A stretch of 64,000 bases of DNA from Armatimonadota bacterium. GTDB taxonomy: Bacteria; Armatimonadota; Zipacnadia; Zipacnadales; JABUFB01. The notes under the pieces are model-generated. The model was not told the DNA's origin. It ran no database searches and saw nothing but the letters and a program-made list of their open reading frames with translations. Of this stretch, positions 1,356-27,692 are shown piece after piece (the stretch's first letter is position 1; each line of letters starts with the position of its first letter). Made by a program: the position numbers and the translations under genes. The stretch covers positions 3,189 through 67,188 of the forward strand of contig JABUFB010000019.1 in assembly GCA_013314775.1 (NCBI GenBank), written 5' to 3'.

Positions 1356-3617
1356 CTATGCCTCAGCCTTCAGGTGCCTGTCCAGAAAGGCGAATGTCCC
1401 CGCGCCGTTGATCGCGTGAGGGCCGTTGAAGACCTCCATCTCCGTGCGGTCGCCAATGCCGAGGATATCATACTGGAACCGGGTGCGGGCATACTCATAC
1501 GCGACCCACTCATCGGGCGCCACGCCGTCGAAATGCCCGCGCTCCACCATGAATGGCCGTGGGCAGATGAGCCAGCTCATTTCGGCGTAGTTGAAGGTAT
1601 TGCCCAGGTTGAACTCGGGCATCTCATACTCGCCGGTACGCAGGTAGGTGTAGCTGTGGCGGGTGGAGCAGTTCTTCCAGATCCATTCATCATAGTCTGC
1701 CGAACAGATGGACAAGCAGTAGTCGTCGAGCAGGGCCGGAACCCGCATGGCGGTCTTTCCGCCGTAGCTCAGACCGTAGAAGCCTATTCGCTGCGGATCC
1801 ACCCACGGCAGACTTTTCAGCCAGTCGAGAGTCTGCTGGTGCTGCCGGACGATGTACGAGAACAGCGAGAGCTTCAAGGGGTTCGCCTTGCGCTGAAGGA
1901 CCCGAAAGTCGTCATAGCCGATATAGGGGTTTTGCGGGGCGTAGGTGATGTACCCCTTGCTTGCGAGACGGCATGCGAACTGGCCGTAGGCGGGCACGTT
2001 ATTGCCCGGGTCTGCCACGTCTTGAGGCCGGCCCTCGAGACCGTGCTGGCACACAACCACCGGTCTACGCTCGCCTTCGCGCAGGTCGGACGGCAGAAGC
2101 AGAATGCCGTATGCGAAAACATCCTGATAAACGTCCAGCATGATCTCGTAGCCGGTGAAGTCTTCGGTCTCATAGACTTTGCGCGCCCGGGGGTTGGCCG
2201 GGAGTTCAGGCTCAGGCAGCTTGCCGATAACCTCCTCCCACAGGTACTTGCGGTACTGCCGGCACTGCCGCTCCCAGTCCTTCACGGTGGCGCCGGTGGC
2301 CTTTTTCCAGAAGTCCTTGCGTGCGAACTCCGCCTCGCGCAGGGCATGCTGTGTGTGCCCGAGCACCTGAAGGAACTGCCTGCGGTGGGTGACCTCGCTG
2401 TCCTCAAGTTCATGGGTGATCTCAGGCGCTTCTCCCGGTTCGGGTAGTGCGTCCGCAACTCCGAGGCCCTGCAGCAGGCTGGCCAGCGCCTTGTCCGAGC
2501 CCGGCCGCCCCGTCTTCGAGCGGACCAGACGGAAGTCGGTCTCCAATCCCTCGACCAGCGCCTTCGCACGGTCCAGTTCTCGCTGCACCGCCGCGAAAGA
2601 AGGCGTGCTCAGGGCTCCCGGCGCGGCTCCTGACCTACCTTCACGCGCCGGTGGCGGGCCGTTGACCTCGGGCACCGGGCAGTGCTCGACCACAAGCGGC
2701 CTCGGGGCGATGAGGGTCGCGAGTTCCGCATCCCCGAACTGCTCCAGCAGCGCCCATACATTTCGGTAGATCGGCTCTCTCCAGAGCTCCTCGCGCGGTC
2801 CGAAGTACCCGCTCACCAGGGCTGCGTCGATGCGCCGATCGACCGCCGCCGCATACAGCGCGATCAGCCCGCCTTCGCCGTACCCCGCAATTCCGATGGG
2901 GCGCCCGGAGCGCCCGGACTTAAGCCAGTCCAGCACCGCGAGGACCTTCTGCACCTCGTAACCGATGATGTGGCGCCCAAGCTCGAAGGCCGGGCGGTAG
3001 ATGAACTCCCGGTGCGGCTGGTTGGTGGCGAGGGTGAGTGCGGCGACGGAATCATCGTCCAGGCGGTTGATCAGCCACGGAACCAGCACCCGGCAGCCAG
3101 TCTCGGCAAGGCGCCGGGCGAACTGAGCGTCCGACGGCAGACCGTCTTCGATCCCGATGAGCATGCCGGGCGTCCAGTCGCAGTCGGGCAGAGCGATGAT
3201 GTCGGCGATGGGTTCGCCCCAGGGGTCCAGCACAAGACCCTCGGCCTCCACACCCGGCAGCACCGCCCAGCGGGCGCGCATCACCTGGTAGTCGTTCGCC
3301 ATGGCCACGGGCGCCTCGCAAAGCACATGCGGTCCGGTTTGCCCGACGAGTTCGAACCGCACCGGTTCGCGCTCATCAACGACGCCAATGATCCGGGCCA
3401 GCTCCTTCCGGTTCCGCGCCACCGACTTTGCGTACGCGGCGGGAGAACTCAGGTCCCGCTGCCAGTGGCGCTCACGCCTCCCGGCGATTTCGCGATTACG
3501 ACGGTCGAGGTCGCGGCTGATGCCGGCAACCATTGCCGCCGCGAGATCGCCTTTCGCGGTGAGCGGCGCGGCTCCCGGGATGCTGTCGACGCCCGTCTGT
3601 GAACGCTTCGCGGCCAT
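1356..3617 (-). CDS. alpha/beta-hydrolase fold protein with two tandem esterase-like domains (dienelactone hydrolase / acetyl-xylan-esterase-like)
   Basis: 753-aa ORF. The C-terminal domain has a canonical nucleophile elbow GFYGLSYGG and follows a HGLEGR motif. The N-terminal paralogous domain has IGIAGYGEGG at the equivalent position, with Gly replacing the nucleophile Ser. It is coding-dense and colinear. No signal peptide is evident. Confidence 0.6.
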   Translation of the reverse strand: MAAKRSQTGVDSIPGAAPLTAKGDLAAAMVAGISRDLDRRNREIAGRRERHWQRDLSSPAAYAKSVARNRKELARIIGVVDEREPVRFELVGQTGPHVLCEAPVAMANDYQVMRARWAVLPGVEAEGLVLDPWGEPIADIIALPDCDWTPGMLIGIEDGLPSDAQFARRLAETGCRVLVPWLINRLDDDSVAALTLATNQPHREFIYRPAFELGRHIIGYEVQKVLAVLDWLKSGRSGRPIGIAGYGEGGLIALYAAAVDRRIDAALVSGYFGPREELWREPIYRNVWALLEQFGDAELATLIAPRPLVVEHCPVPEVNGPPPAREGRSGAAPGALSTPSFAAVQRELDRAKALVEGLETDFRLVRSKTGRPGSDKALASLLQGLGVADALPEPGEAPEITHELEDSEVTHRRQFLQVLGHTQHALREAEFARKDFWKKATGATVKDWERQCRQYRKYLWEEVIGKLPEPELPANPRARKVYETEDFTGYEIMLDVYQDVFAYGILLLPSDLREGERRPVVVCQHGLEGRPQDVADPGNNVPAYGQFACRLASKGYITYAPQNPYIGYDDFRVLQRKANPLKLSLFSYIVRQHQQTLDWLKSLPWVDPQRIGFYGLSYGGKTAMRVPALLDDYCLSICSADYDEWIWKNCSTRHSYTYLRTGEYEMPEFNLGNTFNYAEMSWLICPRPFMVERGHFDGVAPDEWVAYEYARTRFQYDILGIGDRTEMEVFNGPHAINGAGTFAFLDRHLKAEA

Positions 3618-21049: not shown

Positions 21050-23725
21050 CTATCTGCCCAGTGCCTCGTCGATGATATGGCGAATACTGGCCAACATCGC
21101 CTCAACTGCGGCCTCGGGCTCCGCATGGCCCTGGAGTACCGGGTATATGTGGCTCTGGATGGCGCGGCTTACCCTCTGATAGTCAGGGATGCGCTCTCGG
21201 GTTCTCGCGCTTGCGAGGATCTGCTTGAGCTCGCGGTAGTGGGGCTGGAAAGCCAGGATTTCCTGGTCGTCGTAGAGCGCCTTGAGAGTGGGCAGTGGTC
21301 CGCCACGCAGCGCCCGTTCCTTCTGGATCTCGTAGCTGCTCATGAATCTGATGAAGTCCCGCGCGGTGGAAGGCGCCAACGCGCCTCGCGGAACAGCGTA
21401 GTGCCACCCGCCCAGGAAACTGTGGCTCTCGGTGCCCGATGGTCCCACCGGCGCAGGTGCAATGCCGACCTTGCCGCGCACCGCAGAATCTGTCTGCATG
21501 GCGGGCTGCATGACGCTCGGGAGCATCCAGAGAAACACCGTGCGCCCGGCCAGGAAGTTTTCCTGGGGTTCCACGCCGTGCCCGGGCGCCGTGATTTCCC
21601 GCGGCGTAACTGCGTGAACGTGGATCAGGTCTCGCATGAACCGGACCACTTCCAGCGCCTTCCCCGCGTCTAACGTCATCTCTCGGGTTGCATCGTCAAT
21701 GACCTGCCCACCGTTGCTCCACAGGTTCACAAGGAACGAGCTGCTGAGCCCCTCGTAGGTGAAGGCTGGGAACTCAAAACCGATCAGGTTCTCGTTGCCG
21801 GGCGCTGAACAGATGGTTTTCGCCTGGTCCACGAGTTCGTCCCAAGTGGCAGGGGGCGCCGAGAAACCGTGCTCCTGCAAGATGTCTCTGCGATACAGCA
21901 GCACTCCGCACAAAGCGATGGCGGGGACCGCATAAACCTCGCCGTCCACGAGGGCGGGCTCCACGACTCCTTCCAGGTGCTCTTCCCAGTCTCCCGGAGG
22001 AAAGATGTCGTTGAGGCTGGAGAGGCGGTCCGGCTGTATTACCCCAGGCATCCAGTACATGCACAGCGGCACCACGCTAAGGCTGGTCTGGCGCGCCGCC
22101 ATGGCCTGGACCACCACATCCCGCGCCTCGTCGGGGTTGTAAGGAATGCTCAGCGGAACTGGCTTCACGCGCGGCTGGATCTGGGCGAACCGTTCCAGCA
22201 GTTCTTCATTGAGTTTCTCGTCGAACTCCGAGAAACTGCGCACGGCCAGCTCGATCGGCACTGCCCGGGCAGCTCCGGCCATGAGCCCCTCGGTGCCCTC
22301 GAAGCGCCCGTGGACGGTGAGGCCTTTGTTGCTGATGGTGAAGCGCCGGATGCCCTTGTCATGGTCGCTGCCACGCAGTTTCAGGACTGACAGGGCGCGC
22401 TGGATTTCGCTCTCCATCTCCACGTACTTCAGTAGAATGATGCAGTCTACGATAATGGAGATGTGTTCGCCCGTGACTTGCGTCTGCCCGAAAACTTCGG
22501 GCACCTCCGCGATCAGCAGGCTCGTGACGCCCCGATCTTCCAATGCGTCGCCCACCGCGTAGACAAGCTCTCGAAGGCCGTCCTCCTGGGTCGCGCCCAT
22601 CTGCAGGTCGGTGAGCGAGTCAATCACAACCCGCTTCGCCCCGAGTGTGTCCACCTGCTCCTTGAGGTCATGAATGAACTTCTCCGGGCGCGTATCCAAG
22701 GGCGAGCAGTACACCACCTGGATCAGGCCCTGATCCTGGTATTCCCGCAGGGGCAGGCCGTAGCTCTGCGCGATCTCCGTGAGCTTGACCGGCGACTCCT
22801 CGAAGCTTACATACAGGCTTTTCTCACCGAGGCCGGCCCCCTGGCTCACGAACTGCAGGCCCACAGTAGTCTTGCCCACGCCTGCGCTTCCGGCAACCAG
22901 CGTGGAGAAGCCGCAGATCAGCCCTCCGCCCAGCATCTCGTCGAGGCCGCGAATACCCGTAGGAGTTCGGCAAAGGCCTCGGGCCCAGGCAAGGCCCTCG
23001 CGCTTTGACGGCTGGTGCCTGGGATAGACCGCGGCGCCGCGGTCGGTCAGCTCAAGCATGTGCTTGCCGGGAACGTGCGGCGCGCCCCGGCTCTTGAGCA
23101 CTTCCACGTATCGCCGCCGCTGATTGTGGCTGAAGGTGTCGTATCGCAGCCGCACGACGCAGTCTGCAAGAAACTCTTCGAAGGGCACGCAATCGGTGTC
23201 GAAGCTCTCGAGTTCCTTGGTGATGACCGACGTGAGCCCCGCTCTGCGCAGCCCGTTCATCATCCCATAAACCGCAGCCCGCAGATGTCCCGGTTCGCGG
23301 CCCATCTGGCTGAAGTGCGAGACGCTGTCCATCAGCAGCCGCGTGGCGCCGATCTCGGCAACGGTCGCCTCCACGATTCCGCCCACATCCTGAAGCTGGT
23401 CCAGGAAAACCTCGGGGGACGTGCAGATGATTCGCAGTTTGCCCTCTGCCTCGAGTTGTGCCAGGTCCCACCCGAAGTTGAGTGTGTCCTGCTTGAGCTG
23501 GCGGGGGAACTCTTCGAAGGTGACGATGATGCCCGGGTTGCCGGACATCGCCGAGTGGTAAATGAACTGCAGCCCGACTGTGGTCTTTCCCGTGCCCGGG
23601 ACGCCCTCGAGCAGACTGCAGCTTCCCTCCCGAAAACCGCCGGAGAGCAGCTCATCCAGTCCCGGGACGCCCGTACTGATCGCTCTAGCTGTCACTTGCT
23701 GTCGCTCCTGGCTGTGGGGGGCCAT
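21050..23725 (-). CDS. tandem KaiC-like RecA-superfamily ATPase fused to a C-terminal ABC-type solute-binding-protein (SBP_bac_1, sugar-binding-like) domain
   Basis: Two KaiC modules. Module 1: GVPGLDELLSGGF..EGVPGTGKTT, IIVTFEEF, RLLMDSVS. Module 2: GIRGLDEMLGGGL..AGSAGVGKTT, LYVSFEES, RVVIDSLT. Then about 400 aa with SBP family-1 signatures (AVPAIALCGVLLYRRDILQEHGFSAPPATWDELVDQAK; FLGGWHYAVPRGALAPSTARDFIRFMSSYEIQ). No signal peptide, so the binding domain is predicted cytoplasmic. Confidence 0.7.
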   Translation of the reverse strand: MAPHSQERQQVTARAISTGVPGLDELLSGGFREGSCSLLEGVPGTGKTTVGLQFIYHSAMSGNPGIIVTFEEFPRQLKQDTLNFGWDLAQLEAEGKLRIICTSPEVFLDQLQDVGGIVEATVAEIGATRLLMDSVSHFSQMGREPGHLRAAVYGMMNGLRRAGLTSVITKELESFDTDCVPFEEFLADCVVRLRYDTFSHNQRRRYVEVLKSRGAPHVPGKHMLELTDRGAAVYPRHQPSKREGLAWARGLCRTPTGIRGLDEMLGGGLICGFSTLVAGSAGVGKTTVGLQFVSQGAGLGEKSLYVSFEESPVKLTEIAQSYGLPLREYQDQGLIQVVYCSPLDTRPEKFIHDLKEQVDTLGAKRVVIDSLTDLQMGATQEDGLRELVYAVGDALEDRGVTSLLIAEVPEVFGQTQVTGEHISIIVDCIILLKYVEMESEIQRALSVLKLRGSDHDKGIRRFTISNKGLTVHGRFEGTEGLMAGAARAVPIELAVRSFSEFDEKLNEELLERFAQIQPRVKPVPLSIPYNPDEARDVVVQAMAARQTSLSVVPLCMYWMPGVIQPDRLSSLNDIFPPGDWEEHLEGVVEPALVDGEVYAVPAIALCGVLLYRRDILQEHGFSAPPATWDELVDQAKTICSAPGNENLIGFEFPAFTYEGLSSSFLVNLWSNGGQVIDDATREMTLDAGKALEVVRFMRDLIHVHAVTPREITAPGHGVEPQENFLAGRTVFLWMLPSVMQPAMQTDSAVRGKVGIAPAPVGPSGTESHSFLGGWHYAVPRGALAPSTARDFIRFMSSYEIQKERALRGGPLPTLKALYDDQEILAFQPHYRELKQILASARTRERIPDYQRVSRAIQSHIYPVLQGHAEPEAAVEAMLASIRHIIDEALGR

Positions 23726-24167
23726 CCGCTTCGCCCCCGTGCCGATCCTCTTGCTGCTGGCGCACCAGCATCATCAGGATCTCTTTGCGCGCCTCCAGAT
23801 CGTCGTGGTAAGCGTCGCTCACCAGGCACAGGAGGTTCCAGACCCACGGCTCTCTGGCCAGTGCGTAACAGGTGTACTTGCCGTCCGCCCTCACGTGCAC
23901 CTCAAGTAGCTTGTGCGCGGCGAGCCGCTCCAGGGCAGGGCGGATCTCATCTATTCCGCGGTGTGTGCGCAGCGCGATGCCCGAACACGTATCGAAAGTG
24001 CTCGGGTTCGCCTGGTAGAACAGCGCCACATCCAGCCCCACCATGGTGCGCGCCACGTCCCGGATGAACTTTCGTACCCTGTCGTCCATCGCAATTCCTC
24101 TCGGCCCGCGACGGATGTTGCGCGCCCCGGCCCCAAATGGAGCCGCCCTTGCGGGTTTCTTCGCCAT
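23685..24167 (-). CDS. hypothetical small protein with winged-helix-like C-terminal segment
   Basis: 160-aa ORF immediately upstream of the KaiC-like gene and overlapping it by about 40 nt. IRPALERLAAHKLLEVHVRADGKYTCYALA resembles a wHTH recognition helix plus wing. The start may be the internal Met (MDDRVRKF). Confidence 0.3.
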   Translation of the reverse strand: MAKKPARAAPFGAGARNIRRGPRGIAMDDRVRKFIRDVARTMVGLDVALFYQANPSTFDTCSGIALRTHRGIDEIRPALERLAAHKLLEVHVRADGKYTCYALAREPWVWNLLCLVSDAYHDDLEARKEILMMLVRQQQEDRHGGEADGPPQPGATASDS

Positions 24168-24436
24168 CCGTGTCTCCTATTCCTGCAAGATGTGCAGACA
24201 GACTTTTCCGGCCTCTATGGCTCAGGCCGTTGCGATCGCAGTGCTGATCTTATTCACCGCCAGTTTGCAGTTTTGTTCCGACCAACTTGTGTTTTCTGCC
24301 AATGAATCGGGGGTGAGAGCCATTTCGCAGACAAACTGTGGGACTTTTCCGTAGTGGTATTGGCGGACAGGATCGGATACACTACAATAGAAGGGGGGGC
24401 GGCCCGCAAAGGTCACCGCGGACCGCCGGAAACCAC

Positions 24437-25723
24437 ATGGGCACATCGAGTTCACAACCGTCTCCCAGAAACGAACAGTGGCGTTATGTGCGGGACGCGT
24501 ACCGCGACGGCATCCGCGAACCGGCGGAGATTTCGCGGCGCATCGCTCTCGCGATCGGCACACCCGGCCGTCTTGCCATGGCGGACACGGGTCCCTCTAT
24601 GTGCCTGGACTCTCTCCTGCTCGGGGCTCGCAGGTATTCCGAAGACCCCCCGGCCCCCAGCTCCCCCCGGCCCCCGCTCCAGACCGTTGCCCGGCTGCGA
24701 TCTGACGCCGAATGGCGGCTGGCCCAGCAACACAGGGCTTCGCGATACACCGACATCGCACTCGATGCCCTGGGAGTGGCGGCCACCCGCGCGCTCGGGA
24801 TCGGGGAGGACCTTGACGCCCCCAATGCGAAATCACTCTCCCGTTACCTGGATGAAGAGCGCATGCACGAGCTGGCCGCGGAGTTCCTCGCGGCTGATAT
24901 CGACCGTTGCTTCCGATACTTCGTCGCCCGTGACATCAGCGAATTGGTGGGATCAGACTACCTGCCAACCGTTGGCCAGGCAGAGGAGTTTGCGCGCCAG
25001 GTCGCCCTTTTTTCCAGCCGTGCTACAGTCGGCGCGATATGTGCCGATGATGAGTCCAGGATCCAGGACGCTGTCAGGCGTTCCGGCGACCAGGAACGCC
25101 TCGCGGTCGTCGGCGAACTCCTGAAACAGGGCATCGACCGCAGCCTCGAGCGAATCTGTGTTGCGTCGGGGCGGGAGGGCACCGGCCGCAGTCATGCGCG
25201 CGGAAGTGCGGGTCCACCAGGCGATGATGACGACGCCGCACACACGCCGGCGCTCCGGCTCATAGACGATGACCAACGTGAGCCGGGGCGCGACTACCTG
25301 CCCGTGTACTCTCTGGAAGCGGCGGCGGGGTACTTCGGCGAAGGGCAGCCTGTTGAGAGCCTGGGGTACGTGCAAGCCCCGCCGGGGCTGCGCCTGTGTG
25401 ACGGGCTCTTTGTGGTGCGCATTCGGGGGCGCTCGATGGAACCCAGGATCCCCGATGGAAGCTATGCGGTCTTCCGCACACCTGTTGTGGGGTCCCGCCA
25501 GGGCAAGATCGTTCTCGCCCAGCGGCGCGGGTACCACGACCCGGACACCGGGGGAAGCTACACGGTGAAACGGTATGAAAGTGCCAAGACCGTAAGCGAA
25601 GACGAGTGGAGCCACACCATGATCCGCCTCGTGCCTGAGAACCCGGAGTATGAACCGATCGAGATCCGGGGAGACAGCGCGGACGAACTGGCGATTATCG
25701 CCGAGTTCGTGACCCTGCTGTAG
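24437..25723 (+). CDS. protein with about 260-aa N-terminal domain of unknown function, disordered acidic linker and C-terminal LexA/UmuD-like S24 peptidase domain
   Basis: C-terminus LPVYSLEAAAGYFGEG...RIRGRSMEP...GSYAVFR...GKIVLAQ...YTVKRY carries the S24 Ser (GRSME) and Lys (TVKRY) dyad motifs. The N-terminal region has no recognised family. Linker GSAGPPGDDDDAAH. The track ORF opens at 24338. ATG 24437 was chosen. Confidence 0.65.
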   Translation: MGTSSSQPSPRNEQWRYVRDAYRDGIREPAEISRRIALAIGTPGRLAMADTGPSMCLDSLLLGARRYSEDPPAPSSPRPPLQTVARLRSDAEWRLAQQHRASRYTDIALDALGVAATRALGIGEDLDAPNAKSLSRYLDEERMHELAAEFLAADIDRCFRYFVARDISELVGSDYLPTVGQAEEFARQVALFSSRATVGAICADDESRIQDAVRRSGDQERLAVVGELLKQGIDRSLERICVASGREGTGRSHARGSAGPPGDDDDAAHTPALRLIDDDQREPGRDYLPVYSLEAAAGYFGEGQPVESLGYVQAPPGLRLCDGLFVVRIRGRSMEPRIPDGSYAVFRTPVVGSRQGKIVLAQRRGYHDPDTGGSYTVKRYESAKTVSEDEWSHTMIRLVPENPEYEPIEIRGDSADELAIIAEFVTLL

Positions 25724-25858
25724 GAGTAAGGGCGCCGTCACTTTCCTTCCGCATGGCCACGCGGGTACCTGCGCGGGACGGGGACGGGGCTCGCCGCAAG
25801 CCACCATACATACGGGGGACCCAGTGCGAGCTGGGACTCTGCCCGGGGGGACAATCGG

Positions 25859-27214
25859 TTGCCTGACAGGTTCGTCGTCGCGCACAGTGCCCAGGGGGGC
25901 AGTGGCAAGTGCGCGCCGGGGGGCAACGAGACACTTGTTCTTGACTGGACCTCGGCCCGGCGCAACGCTATCTGTGACCCGTCGATGTTGCTGGGAGCCT
26001 GCGGCGGAAGGCTGACTGCTCCGCTGCAGGACCTGCTCGACATCGCAACCGCCATCTATCTTGCCGATGTGGCGGCATTTCGCGGTGCCCACGAGGAATG
26101 GGTGCGCCACTTGCACCTGACCATACCCGTCCTCGAGCCCACCTTCTGGCAAGCGCAGACCCCCGATCTGCAGCACCTTCTGTACAGTCTGACCCGGGAC
26201 TCCTTTACATTCCACTTCCTGCAAGCGGACCGGGATCGTTCCGAGGACTGCCGGCAGCACGCCCTGCCCGGCCATCCGGATTGCGTATCACTTCTGTCAG
26301 GGGGTCTGGATTCTCTGGCTGGCGCGGTTTCGCTTCTTCGGGCGGGACGCAGGCCCCTGCTCGTGAGCCACCAGTCTGCGAACCCCGTTGTGCAAACCGC
26401 GCAGCGGCGGCTTGTGGCAACGCTGGAAACCCACTGGCCCGGTGGAGCACAGTGGGCAGGGGTTCGGGTGACGCCCGGGAGCTACGGCGTCGAGGCCCGG
26501 CCCTTCCCTCCGCCCGAGGAGCGCGAGCCGTCTCGCCGGGCCCGACCTGTGCTCTTCCTGACACTCGGCGCCATCGCCTCACACTGCCTGGGCACCTCCG
26601 AGGTCTACATGTGTGAAAACGGGGTGCTCACCGCGGCCTTGCCCCTCACTCCGGCGCGCATTGGCGGCATGTCCACCCGGAGCACCCATCCCGTGACTAT
26701 CAAGCTCTTCTCGGAACTCCTCCAGAAAGCCGGGGTGTGCACAAGCTATCTGAACCCCTTCATGTTCCAGACCAAGGGTGAAGTGGTGCGCACATTCCTC
26801 AAGCCCGTGCTTGCGCCGCAGGAGATCGCACAGTCCGTCTCCTGCTGGATGGCGGGGAGGTTCGTGCGCCCATGTGGGGGATGCGTGCCGTGTCTATTGA
26901 GACGCATTGCGCTGCTCGCGGCTGGTTTGCCTGACGAGGCCTGCATCAACGACGTCTTGCGCGATCCCGAGCAGTACCGGGGCACAGATGCCTTCGGCAA
27001 TCTCGCGGACCTGCTCACCCAGGCTGCAACATTCCTGGGCAAGACCGACCTGGAACTCCTCCTGGAGTACCCGCAGTTCGCGGACCTCATCTCCGCCGAC
27101 GTGCCGGTCCAGGATGTCCTGCGCACCATGAAAAGACACGCGGCCGAGGTCCTGAACGTCTGTGACGCTCACTTCCCGGCGGCAGCGAGGATGCTCCACA
27201 CCACGGTTTTCTGA
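25859..27214 (+). CDS. QueC-like PP-loop ATPase (7-cyano-7-deazaguanine synthase superfamily) with about 130-aa N-terminal extension
   Basis: SLLSGGLDSLAG PP-loop (QueC SGGQDST). PVLFLTLGAIAS (QueC NILFLTLAAIYA). C-terminal zinc knuckle SCW...RPCGGCVPCLLRR (QueC TCY..GCGHCAACNLR). TTG start. Possible alternative start at M 25985. Confidence 0.7.
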   Translation: MPDRFVVAHSAQGGSGKCAPGGNETLVLDWTSARRNAICDPSMLLGACGGRLTAPLQDLLDIATAIYLADVAAFRGAHEEWVRHLHLTIPVLEPTFWQAQTPDLQHLLYSLTRDSFTFHFLQADRDRSEDCRQHALPGHPDCVSLLSGGLDSLAGAVSLLRAGRRPLLVSHQSANPVVQTAQRRLVATLETHWPGGAQWAGVRVTPGSYGVEARPFPPPEEREPSRRARPVLFLTLGAIASHCLGTSEVYMCENGVLTAALPLTPARIGGMSTRSTHPVTIKLFSELLQKAGVCTSYLNPFMFQTKGEVVRTFLKPVLAPQEIAQSVSCWMAGRFVRPCGGCVPCLLRRIALLAAGLPDEACINDVLRDPEQYRGTDAFGNLADLLTQAATFLGKTDLELLLEYPQFADLISADVPVQDVLRTMKRHAAEVLNVCDAHFPAAARMLHTTVF

Positions 27215-27221
27215 TCAGTGC

Positions 27222-27692
27222 TTACAGCTTCATCGCGTACATCACGTACTCGATGAGAGGCTCGAACCCCGCCTTCTCGTAGACGGCCCTTGCAGCGGCA
27301 TGCCCCTCGTTCAGTCCGGTACCCACCGCCGCCACTTCCATCCCGGCTTCCCGGAACCTGTTCAGCGCGAACTCCACCTGCTGCGTCCCGATGCCCCGGC
27401 CGCGGAAAGCCGGTGAAACGCCATTGTAATGGATCGTTCCGACCTTCCGGGCCGAACTCATGGCGAAGCTCACGAACCCCGCCACCTGGCCTGCCACCTC
27501 GGTCACGTAGACATTGTCCATCTCATCCCACAGGCGGCTCATGACCTTGGGTAGCAGCCAGCGATCCCAGCGCTCGTCCCCGATGGCACCATACTTTTCC
27601 TCGAGGCCGAAGTCCGAACCGATTGCCCAGATCTCCTGCACGATCTCCTGAATGCGCGGCATGTCTTGCAATGTCGCCTTGCGAATGTTCAT
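27222..27692 (-). CDS. GNAT family N-acetyltransferase
   Basis: Start MNIRKATLQDMP. Acetyl-CoA binding motif VSPAFRGRGIGTQQVE. The track ORF extends further upstream. Confidence 0.7.
   Translation of the reverse strand: MNIRKATLQDMPRIQEIVQEIWAIGSDFGLEEKYGAIGDERWDRWLLPKVMSRLWDEMDNVYVTEVAGQVAGFVSFAMSSARKVGTIHYNGVSPAFRGRGIGTQQVEFALNRFREAGMEVAAVGTGLNEGHAAARAVYEKAGFEPLIEYVMYAMKL

Follow-up and report, generated by a model that had tools for sequence, protein, structure and literature searches.

We analysed a 64,000-nucleotide window of DNA from an Armatimonadota bacterium (assembly GCA_013314775.1, contig JABUFB010000019.1), in which a pair of co-oriented open reading frames (ORFs), 24437-25723 and 25859-27214, encodes a protein ending in an S24 peptidase domain (gene 1) and a QueC-like PP-loop enzyme (gene 2). 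A preliminary description of the sequence had singled out these two adjacent genes, both of which are found as ORFs, as a functional pair whose second member belongs to the QueC-family enzymes that serve anti-phage systems rather than biosynthesis; that view is upheld here, and a role in nucleobase or protein conjugation is the best reading. Gene 1 starts at ATG 24437 rather than at the upstream GTG 24338, because the MGTS N terminus is kept in orthologs and homologues, and a gap of 135 nucleotides, following the added S24 domain, separates it from gene 2. The closest genome match is JAGPGE010000230.1, with 94% identity over the QatC-like gene. The two genes are:

24437-25723, + strand: gene 1, QatB-like domain with C-terminal S24 peptidase, 428 amino acids (aa); ORF, with the same architecture in orthologs of 85% and 50% identity
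25859-27214, + strand: gene 2, QatC-family QueC-like PP-loop enzyme, 451 aa, TTG start; matches in PADLOC, NCBIfam and the Protein Data Bank (PDB)

Sequence comparison places gene 2 in the QatC family. Its product matches the PADLOC QatC model with E 1.2e-63 over aa 57-360, and the solved QatC structures PDB 9vlk_A (E 2.9e-39) and 9zee_B (E 1.5e-34). The three hallmarks by which its QueC kinship had been recognized are present, namely SGGLDS at aa 147-152, LFLTLGAIA at aa 232-240 and CGGCVPC at aa 339-345. The N-terminal region of about 130 aa had been taken to be extra. It is instead the normal QatC extension (PMC13279940), because the N-terminal 134 aa alone still match QatC (E 4.3e-12); the alignment to the QatC model begins at position 13, and that to solved QatC at structure residue 63, which pairs with query residue 58. 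The features of gene 2 are:

25859-26263, + strand: QatC-type N-terminal extension, aa 1-135, containing D58, D70-x4-R75-x5-W81-x-R83 and D114-x-F-x3-F; aligned to QatC models and structures
26297-26314, + strand: PP-loop SGGLDS, aa 147-152; sequence and alignment to solved QatC
26672-26692, + strand: STRSTHP loop, aa 272-278, a QatC-specific replacement of the QueC Tyr/Asp nucleobase-binding residues; alignment to solved QatC
26843-26905, + strand: four-Cys zinc site C329-x9-C339-GG-C342-xx-C345-LL-RR; sequence and alignment
26945-27211, + strand: C-terminal extension, aa 363-451, conserved within the clade; outside the QatC profile hidden Markov model (HMM) and PDB alignments

Residues D58, D70, R75, R83 and D114 are invariant in the Armatimonadota clade, and an MP.R..V N terminus is common to homologues. 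The motifs of the N-terminal extension are among those given for QatC (PMC13329287); from the same motif list, gene 2 also keeps RxRxxxF, ExG (as ENG), HP, PxxxxTK and the N-terminal D...R...WxR. Of the two invariant QatC threonines (T278 and T280 in P. aeruginosa), the first corresponds to Thr273 and the second to Ser275; T273, S275 and T276 are invariant in the Armatimonadota clade. A role of these loop threonines in QatC has been described, and P. aeruginosa Thr280 is essential (PMC13279940). Clade-invariant departures from the QatC motifs comprise this Ser at the Thr280 position, R-x5-WxR instead of x7, and C-x9-C instead of C-x19-C, the canonical zinc site being C-x19-CGxCxxC (PMC13329287). 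The C-terminal region of QatC serves as the base that binds QatB (PMC13279940).

The published partner of QatC, proposed to be its protein substrate, provides the frame for gene 1. QatB and QatC form a 1:1 complex that is enough for defence against some phages and constitutes the minimal defence unit of QatABCD; QatB is helical, with a disordered N-terminal tail seated in the QatC active site, and an MGTS start with Gly2 and a nearby Pro and Trp are essential (PMC13279940, PMC13376578). The features of gene 1 are:

24437-24472, + strand: N-terminal tail MGTSSSQPSPRN (then EQW), MGTS with Gly2, Pro10 and Trp15; conservation, with aa 1-12 lacking secondary structure in the model
24473-25186, + strand: QatB-like all-helical domain, aa 13-250; AlphaFold2 model and Foldseek
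25187-25300, + strand: acidic low-complexity linker, aa 251-288, with GDDDDA at 262-267 and DDDQRE at 277-282; predicted local distance difference test (pLDDT) drops to 57-65 at the end of the modelled region
25301-25720, + strand: S24 LexA/UmuD/CI-type peptidase domain, aa 289-428; Pfam PF00717
25319-25330, + strand: cleavage-type site AAAG, aa 295-298; at least 90% conserved in the consensus of the 120 closest S24 domains
25433-25435, + strand: Ser333 (GRSME, aa 331-335; GRSMEP); matches the S24 consensus
25568-25570, + strand: Lys378 (TVKRY, aa 376-380); matches the S24 consensus

The region ahead of the S24 domain, set down in the preliminary description as about 260 aa of unrecognized sequence, is most probably a divergent QatB homologue, or at least its functional equivalent, judging from its N-terminal motif, gene order, predicted fold and profile comparison. 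It lies upstream of QatC and opens with MGTSSSQPSPRNEQW; the M/V/L-GTS start, S9, P10 and W15 are found in all 59 of the Armatimonadota homologues listed (in a few, the start codon is an alternative one) and are invariant in a 20-row paired alignment. The canonical QatB proteins encoded upstream of canonical QatC (n = 21) share this start, as MGTSxSSxGxxxxVPMVPPW. An AlphaFold2 model of the N-terminal domain from 46 sequences (pLDDT 91.3, predicted template modelling score 0.87) has 11 helices and leaves residues 1-12 free; QatB in its crystal structure is globular, with about ten helices. Structure search of this model, which had been proposed at the outset, gave QatB as the first and second of all matches: against 350,542 PDB chains, Foldseek ranks 9y01_A and 9y02_A at the top with probability 0.98-0.99, at an E of only 0.06-0.15 and a template modelling (TM) score of 0.33-0.51, and all other matches have probability 0.35 or less. 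Comparison of the Armatimonadota N-domain family with the canonical QatB family by hhalign gives a P of about 6e-4. After removal of the first 25 residues, the Armatimonadota HMM still gives P <= 0.01 for 7 of 21 canonical QatB proteins, versus 10 of 420 shuffled controls. In a 50%-identical ortholog (L001:5831-7000), the public gene call begins 47 codons late, so that MGTS is missed; the full ORF contains MGTSTSQQSPATAEW. Misannotation of the same kind is known for QatB starts (PMC13279940).

The C terminus of gene 1 is an S24 domain with the GRSME and TVKRY motifs behind an acidic linker, as had been read from the sequence. Peptidase_S24 (PF00717) is the sole Pfam match, at aa 289-424 with E 6.9e-13 and 48.8 bits against a curated cut-off of 23.3, and the Pfam scan gives no helix-turn-helix (HTH), winged-helix or other DNA-binding match in gene 1. 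With a QatB-like N-terminal domain and no HTH match, the protein does not resolve as an ordinary LexA with a divergent HTH, an outcome that the preliminary description had considered. The AAAG site, Ser333 and Lys378 agree with consensus positions that are at least 90% conserved in the 120 closest S24 domains. In LexA, CI and UmuD, cleavage at an Ala-Gly bond is stimulated by RecA filaments and parts the N-terminal domain from the dimerizing C-terminal domain. Between the two S24-bearing sublineages, identity is 69% in the S24 domain versus 45% in the QatB-like domain, so the S24 domain is under purifying selection.

Relatives of gene 1 at E <= 0.001 number more than 1,200 proteins; three orthologs aside, they match only through the S24 domain, at 50-57% identity. 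The domain lies at the extreme C terminus in 115 of the best 120 relatives, behind N-terminal domains that include RE_endonuc, T1R_D3-like, MZB with DUF559, HNH_4, TnsA-like, DUF2075/SLFN helicase and HTH, and gene 1 retains the S24 consensus LPLYSLKAAAGYFG...GRSMEP...TVKRY. Proteins P0004-P0120 form a large clade in which a strongly conserved C-terminal S24 domain follows unrelated nuclease or helicase domains; by its sequences, this clade appears to represent a self-cleavage switch, not described before, for effectors of restriction or defence. The two contexts of S24 relatives that we inspected (L091:6001-7047 and L092:6001-7908) look like defence islands, with DruA, ParDE, DNA methyltransferases, a type I/IIG restriction-modification gene, an SLFN-like helicase and ResIII. 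A literature search on S24 domains fused to effectors, or on the nuclease/helicase-S24 clade, found no relevant paper.

What is conserved is the pairing of the N-terminal domain with the QatC-like enzyme. A scan of species genomes, one for each species, with 26 aligned QatC-like proteins as the query recovered 57 loci in Armatimonadota, WS1 or 'Zipacnadia' (34-94% identity) and 23 canonical QatC loci (30-36%). Where the sequence of an Armatimonadota locus extends upstream, the ORF immediately before the QatC-like gene is nearly always homologous to gene 1 aa 1-270. Stand-alone homologues of about 250 aa occupy this position in about 50 Armatimonadota species genomes, the two genes usually abutting or overlapping. 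Only the window's lineage and a second one, 50% identical (L001-L007), have the S24 addition, and every other partner stops at about 250 aa. The neighbourhood check suggested in the preliminary description therefore came out in two parts: the N-terminal domain and the QatC-like gene do co-occur, in about 50 genomes, but the S24 domain is not part of the conserved pairing. The conserved module is QatB-like plus QatC-like, and the S24 domain is a lineage-specific add-on, not core.

A neighbour-joining QatC tree gathers the Armatimonadota proteins into one long-branched clade, and the S24-bearing loci into one small subclade within it. One locus without the S24 domain (L008) is nested inside that subclade, which implies either one gain and one loss or poor resolution of the tree. 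A HMMER search of 1.84 billion representative proteins recovers only 64 relatives of the N-terminal domain at E <= 0.001, most of them stand-alone and about 250 aa long. At one further locus (L090:1924-8124), a QatB-like N-terminal domain is fused to an extracytoplasmic function (ECF) sigma factor (Sigma70_r2 and r4_2; protein P0275 at 1924-3252), followed by a 747-aa TPR/PDZ protein, a Big_7 protein and a 534-aa QueC-like gene. This sigma fusion may no longer be a substrate, because its N terminus is MHMFGPHRSP and not MGTS.

Our data argue, with moderate confidence, for a two-gene module of QatBC type in which gene 1 is a QatB-type partner with an added S24 domain that would gate the modification. 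The analysis shows which domains the proteins contain, that the pairing is conserved, that the motifs are intact and that the fusion is narrowly distributed; we consider the identity of the module parts highly probable. By analogy with published QatBC and Cap9, Met1 of the gene 1 protein would be taken off, its MGTS tail would enter the active site of the QatC-like enzyme, and this enzyme, with ATP, would activate a carboxylate substrate, possibly 7-deazaguanine-like, and join it to the Gly2 amine. The S24 domain may keep the QatB-like part dimeric or otherwise constrained, and when triggered, most likely by filaments of RecA on single-stranded DNA arising from DNA damage or phage replication, may cut itself at Ala297-Gly298; the cut would free the QatB-like part, so that the output is gated. 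We give this chain of steps an even chance. Because the overall reading combines the firm identification of the parts with this mechanism, its standing lies between the two.

Several observations weigh against this reading. At the level of gene 2, the score against the NCBIfam QatC model (NF041925) is 232.4 bits, below the equivalog cut-off of 280, so the enzyme belongs to a divergent QatC subfamily and is not an equivalog. For gene 1, the check with PADLOC that identified gene 2 as QatC gave no QatB match: the QatB models of PADLOC and NCBIfam match neither gene 1 nor 45 homologues, even at E <= 1, so that QatB membership is argued from the motif, gene order and fold, together with weak profile signals. 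A phmmer search of gene 1 against PDB sequences likewise recovers no QatB, only marginal LexA matches. No QatA homologue occurs in any Armatimonadota locus of the pair, Armatimonadota are absent from the canonical QatA cluster, and the gene calls of the annotated Armatimonadota loci include neither a KAP NTPase nor a TatD gene. A QatA-like gene lies upstream in 20 of the 23 canonical loci; only about 34% of QatC-cluster genes have QatA and QatD neighbours anyway (PMC13329287). The flanks of the pair are housekeeping genes that vary by lineage and not defence islands, and the viral contigs searched lack the Armatimonadota type and hold only three relatives, of canonical type. As for the switch, the closest ortholog (P0001, L002:10001-11290) has Val at P1 (AAVG in place of AAAG), which makes the capacity for cleavage less than certain; self-cleavage there may be lowered or altered. 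RecA dependence of the cleavage, although most likely, is carried over from family knowledge only, and the QatC reaction itself is still unresolved (PMC13279940).

Some of these observations find a ready explanation if the pair is a vertically inherited N-terminal protein modification or regulatory pair rather than a phage defence system, the S24 domain tying it to the cell's own DNA-damage response. We regard this alternative as rather unlikely. It would account for a single clade confined to Armatimonadota, WS1 and 'Zipacnadia' genomes, for a position among housekeeping genes (purD/E/F, dnaB, YebC, SelB, hslVU) and beside the same highly conserved GNAT acetyltransferase gene in 28 of 58 loci, and for the lack of QatA, QatD and viral carriers; the fusion of one relative (L090) to an ECF sigma factor would also fit. 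However, the sole experimentally studied relatives, QatBC and Cap9, work in phage defence (PMC13279940, bioRxiv 10.1101/2025.04.06.647259), the S24 module is drawn from a pool found on nucleases and helicases whose two inspected contexts resemble defence islands, and the sigma fusion lacks the MGTS start.

A second alternative keeps the module and reverses the switch: self-cleavage would turn the QatB-like protein off by exposing an ...EAAA end to proteases such as ClpXP, sparing the cell self-damage during the SOS response. The predicted cut would leave a C-terminal Ala-Ala-Ala (clade consensus LKAAA|G), resembling the latent ClpX signal, ending in Val-Ala-Ala, that cleaved LexA exposes. The sister S24 fusions are restriction-type nucleases beside methyltransferases, for which shut-off on DNA damage (restriction alleviation) would make sense. 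Since most homologues work without an S24 domain, either direction is possible, and we judge this one improbable.

The preliminary description had also raised the possibility of an entirely undescribed system made up of a LexA-like S24 fusion, perhaps a repressor that autoregulates through an upstream operator, and a QueC-like enzyme. In its favour, the S24 domain is real, no paper on the fusion was found, and the letters of the proposed repeat are present, with arms GTAGTGGTAT at 24352-24361 and ATACACTAC at 24378-24386. These arms form 6 perfect base pairs plus an indel, a repeat search reported no inverted repeat at 24352-24386, and in 85%-identical orthologs the right arm is changed, without compensation, to ATGCGCTAA. 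The repeat overlaps the only promoter-like site in 24100-27400:

24360-24388, + strand: sigma-70-like promoter match TTGGCG-17-TACAAT

The -10-like element is roughly kept in orthologs, unlike the right arm of the repeat. We therefore reject the operator: the repeat is undetected, is not conserved and coincides with a promoter-like site, and gene 1 has no DNA-binding domain. With gene 2 in the QatC family, a QatB-type N-terminal domain without HTH in gene 1, and this domain rather than S24 as the conserved partner of the QatC-like gene, a wholly undescribed system is very improbable. That gene 2 is a housekeeping QueC for queuosine is hardly credible, despite a weak match of its C-terminal part to Pfam QueC (E 5.9e-06): canonical QueC is ruled out by a TIGR00364 score of 17.3 bits against a cut-off of 150.3 and by the STRSTHP loop in place of the Tyr/Asp residues, no que genes are adjacent, and QatC fails to complement an E. 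coli queC deletion (PMC13329287).

The surroundings of the pair were scanned in the close ortholog loci and among the ORFs of the window. They comprise a KaiC-solute-binding-protein fusion, a small unknown protein, a GNAT acetyltransferase, a ceramidase-like protein, DUF4438 and SelB; neither queD, queE, queF or tgt, as had been stated before, nor a CD-NTase or TGT is among them. Directly downstream of gene 2 and convergent with it, a 156-aa GNAT acetyltransferase with a weak RimI-like match is encoded at 27222-27692 (- strand). Its adjacency to the QatC-like gene holds in 28 of 58 Armatimonadota loci, though the genes beyond it vary, and it is more strongly conserved than the QatB-like/QatC-like pair; the adjacency could be plain synteny or a tie to N-terminal amine chemistry. 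On the other side, an 891-aa protein of unusual architecture, a double KaiC ATPase fused to a periplasmic-type solute-binding domain, is encoded at 21050-23725 (- strand), beside a 134-aa protein without family match at 23685-24092 (- strand). Both genes are transcribed away from the pair, in the window as in 9 related loci, and they also occur in L086. We set them aside as synteny rather than module parts, because they accompany the pair in only these 9 loci and L086.

The closest known system to the proposed QatBC-type module is QatABCD with its QatB-QatC core (PDB 9y01/9y02, 9vlk and 9zee; PMC13279940, PMC13376578, PMC13639016). The Armatimonadota pair shares with this core an enzyme with QatC-type N- and C-terminal extensions, PP-loop, zinc site and STR(T/S)THP loop, and a helical partner of about 250 aa that is encoded directly upstream and has a free N-terminal tail of MGTS, then Pro and Trp. 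It differs in having no QatA (KAP NTPase) or QatD (TatD nuclease) at its loci; in a partner too divergent for QatB HMMs, with a much shorter tail; in an enzyme that is only 30-36% identical to canonical QatC, forms a separate Armatimonadota clade, has Ser for Thr280 and a zinc loop 10 residues shorter; and in its housekeeping chromosomal context and, in the window's lineage, the C-terminal S24 domain of the partner.

More distant parallels bear on the proposed chemistry and on the switch. Cap9 of the type IV cyclic-oligonucleotide-based anti-phage signalling system (CBASS), which carries out protein deazaguanylation, offers an analogy in that a QueC-family enzyme acts on the Gly2 amine of a partner whose N-terminal tail, MGGS, reaches into the active site (bioRxiv 10.1101/2025.04.06.647259). 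Its own features, a minimal enzyme of about 185 aa with QueC catalytic motifs, a CD-NTase partner, Cap10 and CBASS effectors, are not seen here, where the enzyme has 451 aa. As in LexA, UmuD and lambda CI, gene 1 has a C-terminal S24 domain with a Ser-Lys dyad and an Ala-Gly site after a linker, such that predicted cleavage would release the N-terminal domain; unlike theirs, this domain is of QatB type, neither DNA-binding nor a polymerase subunit, and sequence similarity to LexA and UmuD is marginal. The nuclease/helicase-S24 clade (RE_endonuc-S24, DUF2075-S24, HNH-S24) comes closest in the S24 domain itself, at 50-57% identity with a LPxYSLxAAAGYFG...GRSMEP...TVKRY consensus, but none of its members has a QatB-like domain; their N-terminal domains are nucleases or helicases, and the two contexts inspected contain methyltransferases, toxin-antitoxin and other defence genes.

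The preliminary description had presented the pair as undescribed. As a system it is not, gene 2 being of the QatC family and QatBC published (PMC13279940); for the S24 fusion the claim stands, since our literature search found no paper describing one in a Qat setting. What is new here is thus a QatBC pair that is minimal and divergent and that has, in one lineage, QatB fused to S24, and not the QatBC system itself. The analysis also brought up nuclease and helicase proteins, many in number and apparently not described before, that have the same C-terminal S24 module.

For the Qat field, the structures of QatBC are known, but neither the group that QatC adds to QatB nor the way in which modified QatB halts phage has been settled (PMC13279940). 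A natural clade with QatBC only implies that the core can persist without QatA or QatD, and in so divergent a pair the invariant residues (MGTS, P10, W15, the PP-loop and the STRSTHP loop) mark what matters. The S24 fusion places a well-understood and easily assayed switch on QatB, and suggests that freeing QatB or changing its oligomeric state belongs to the mechanism. A broader proposal, which we offer tentatively and consider doubtful, is that N-terminal conjugation by a QueC-family enzyme has been wired to a LexA-type switch, the pair being a chromosomally stable signalling or modification module and not only mobile defence, with its QatB-like output released or destroyed on RecA filaments. 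If true, Qat-type chemistry would for the first time be seen naturally tied to the sensing of DNA damage, and this would suggest a change in the physical state of QatB, by release or in oligomeric state, as the trigger of the response.

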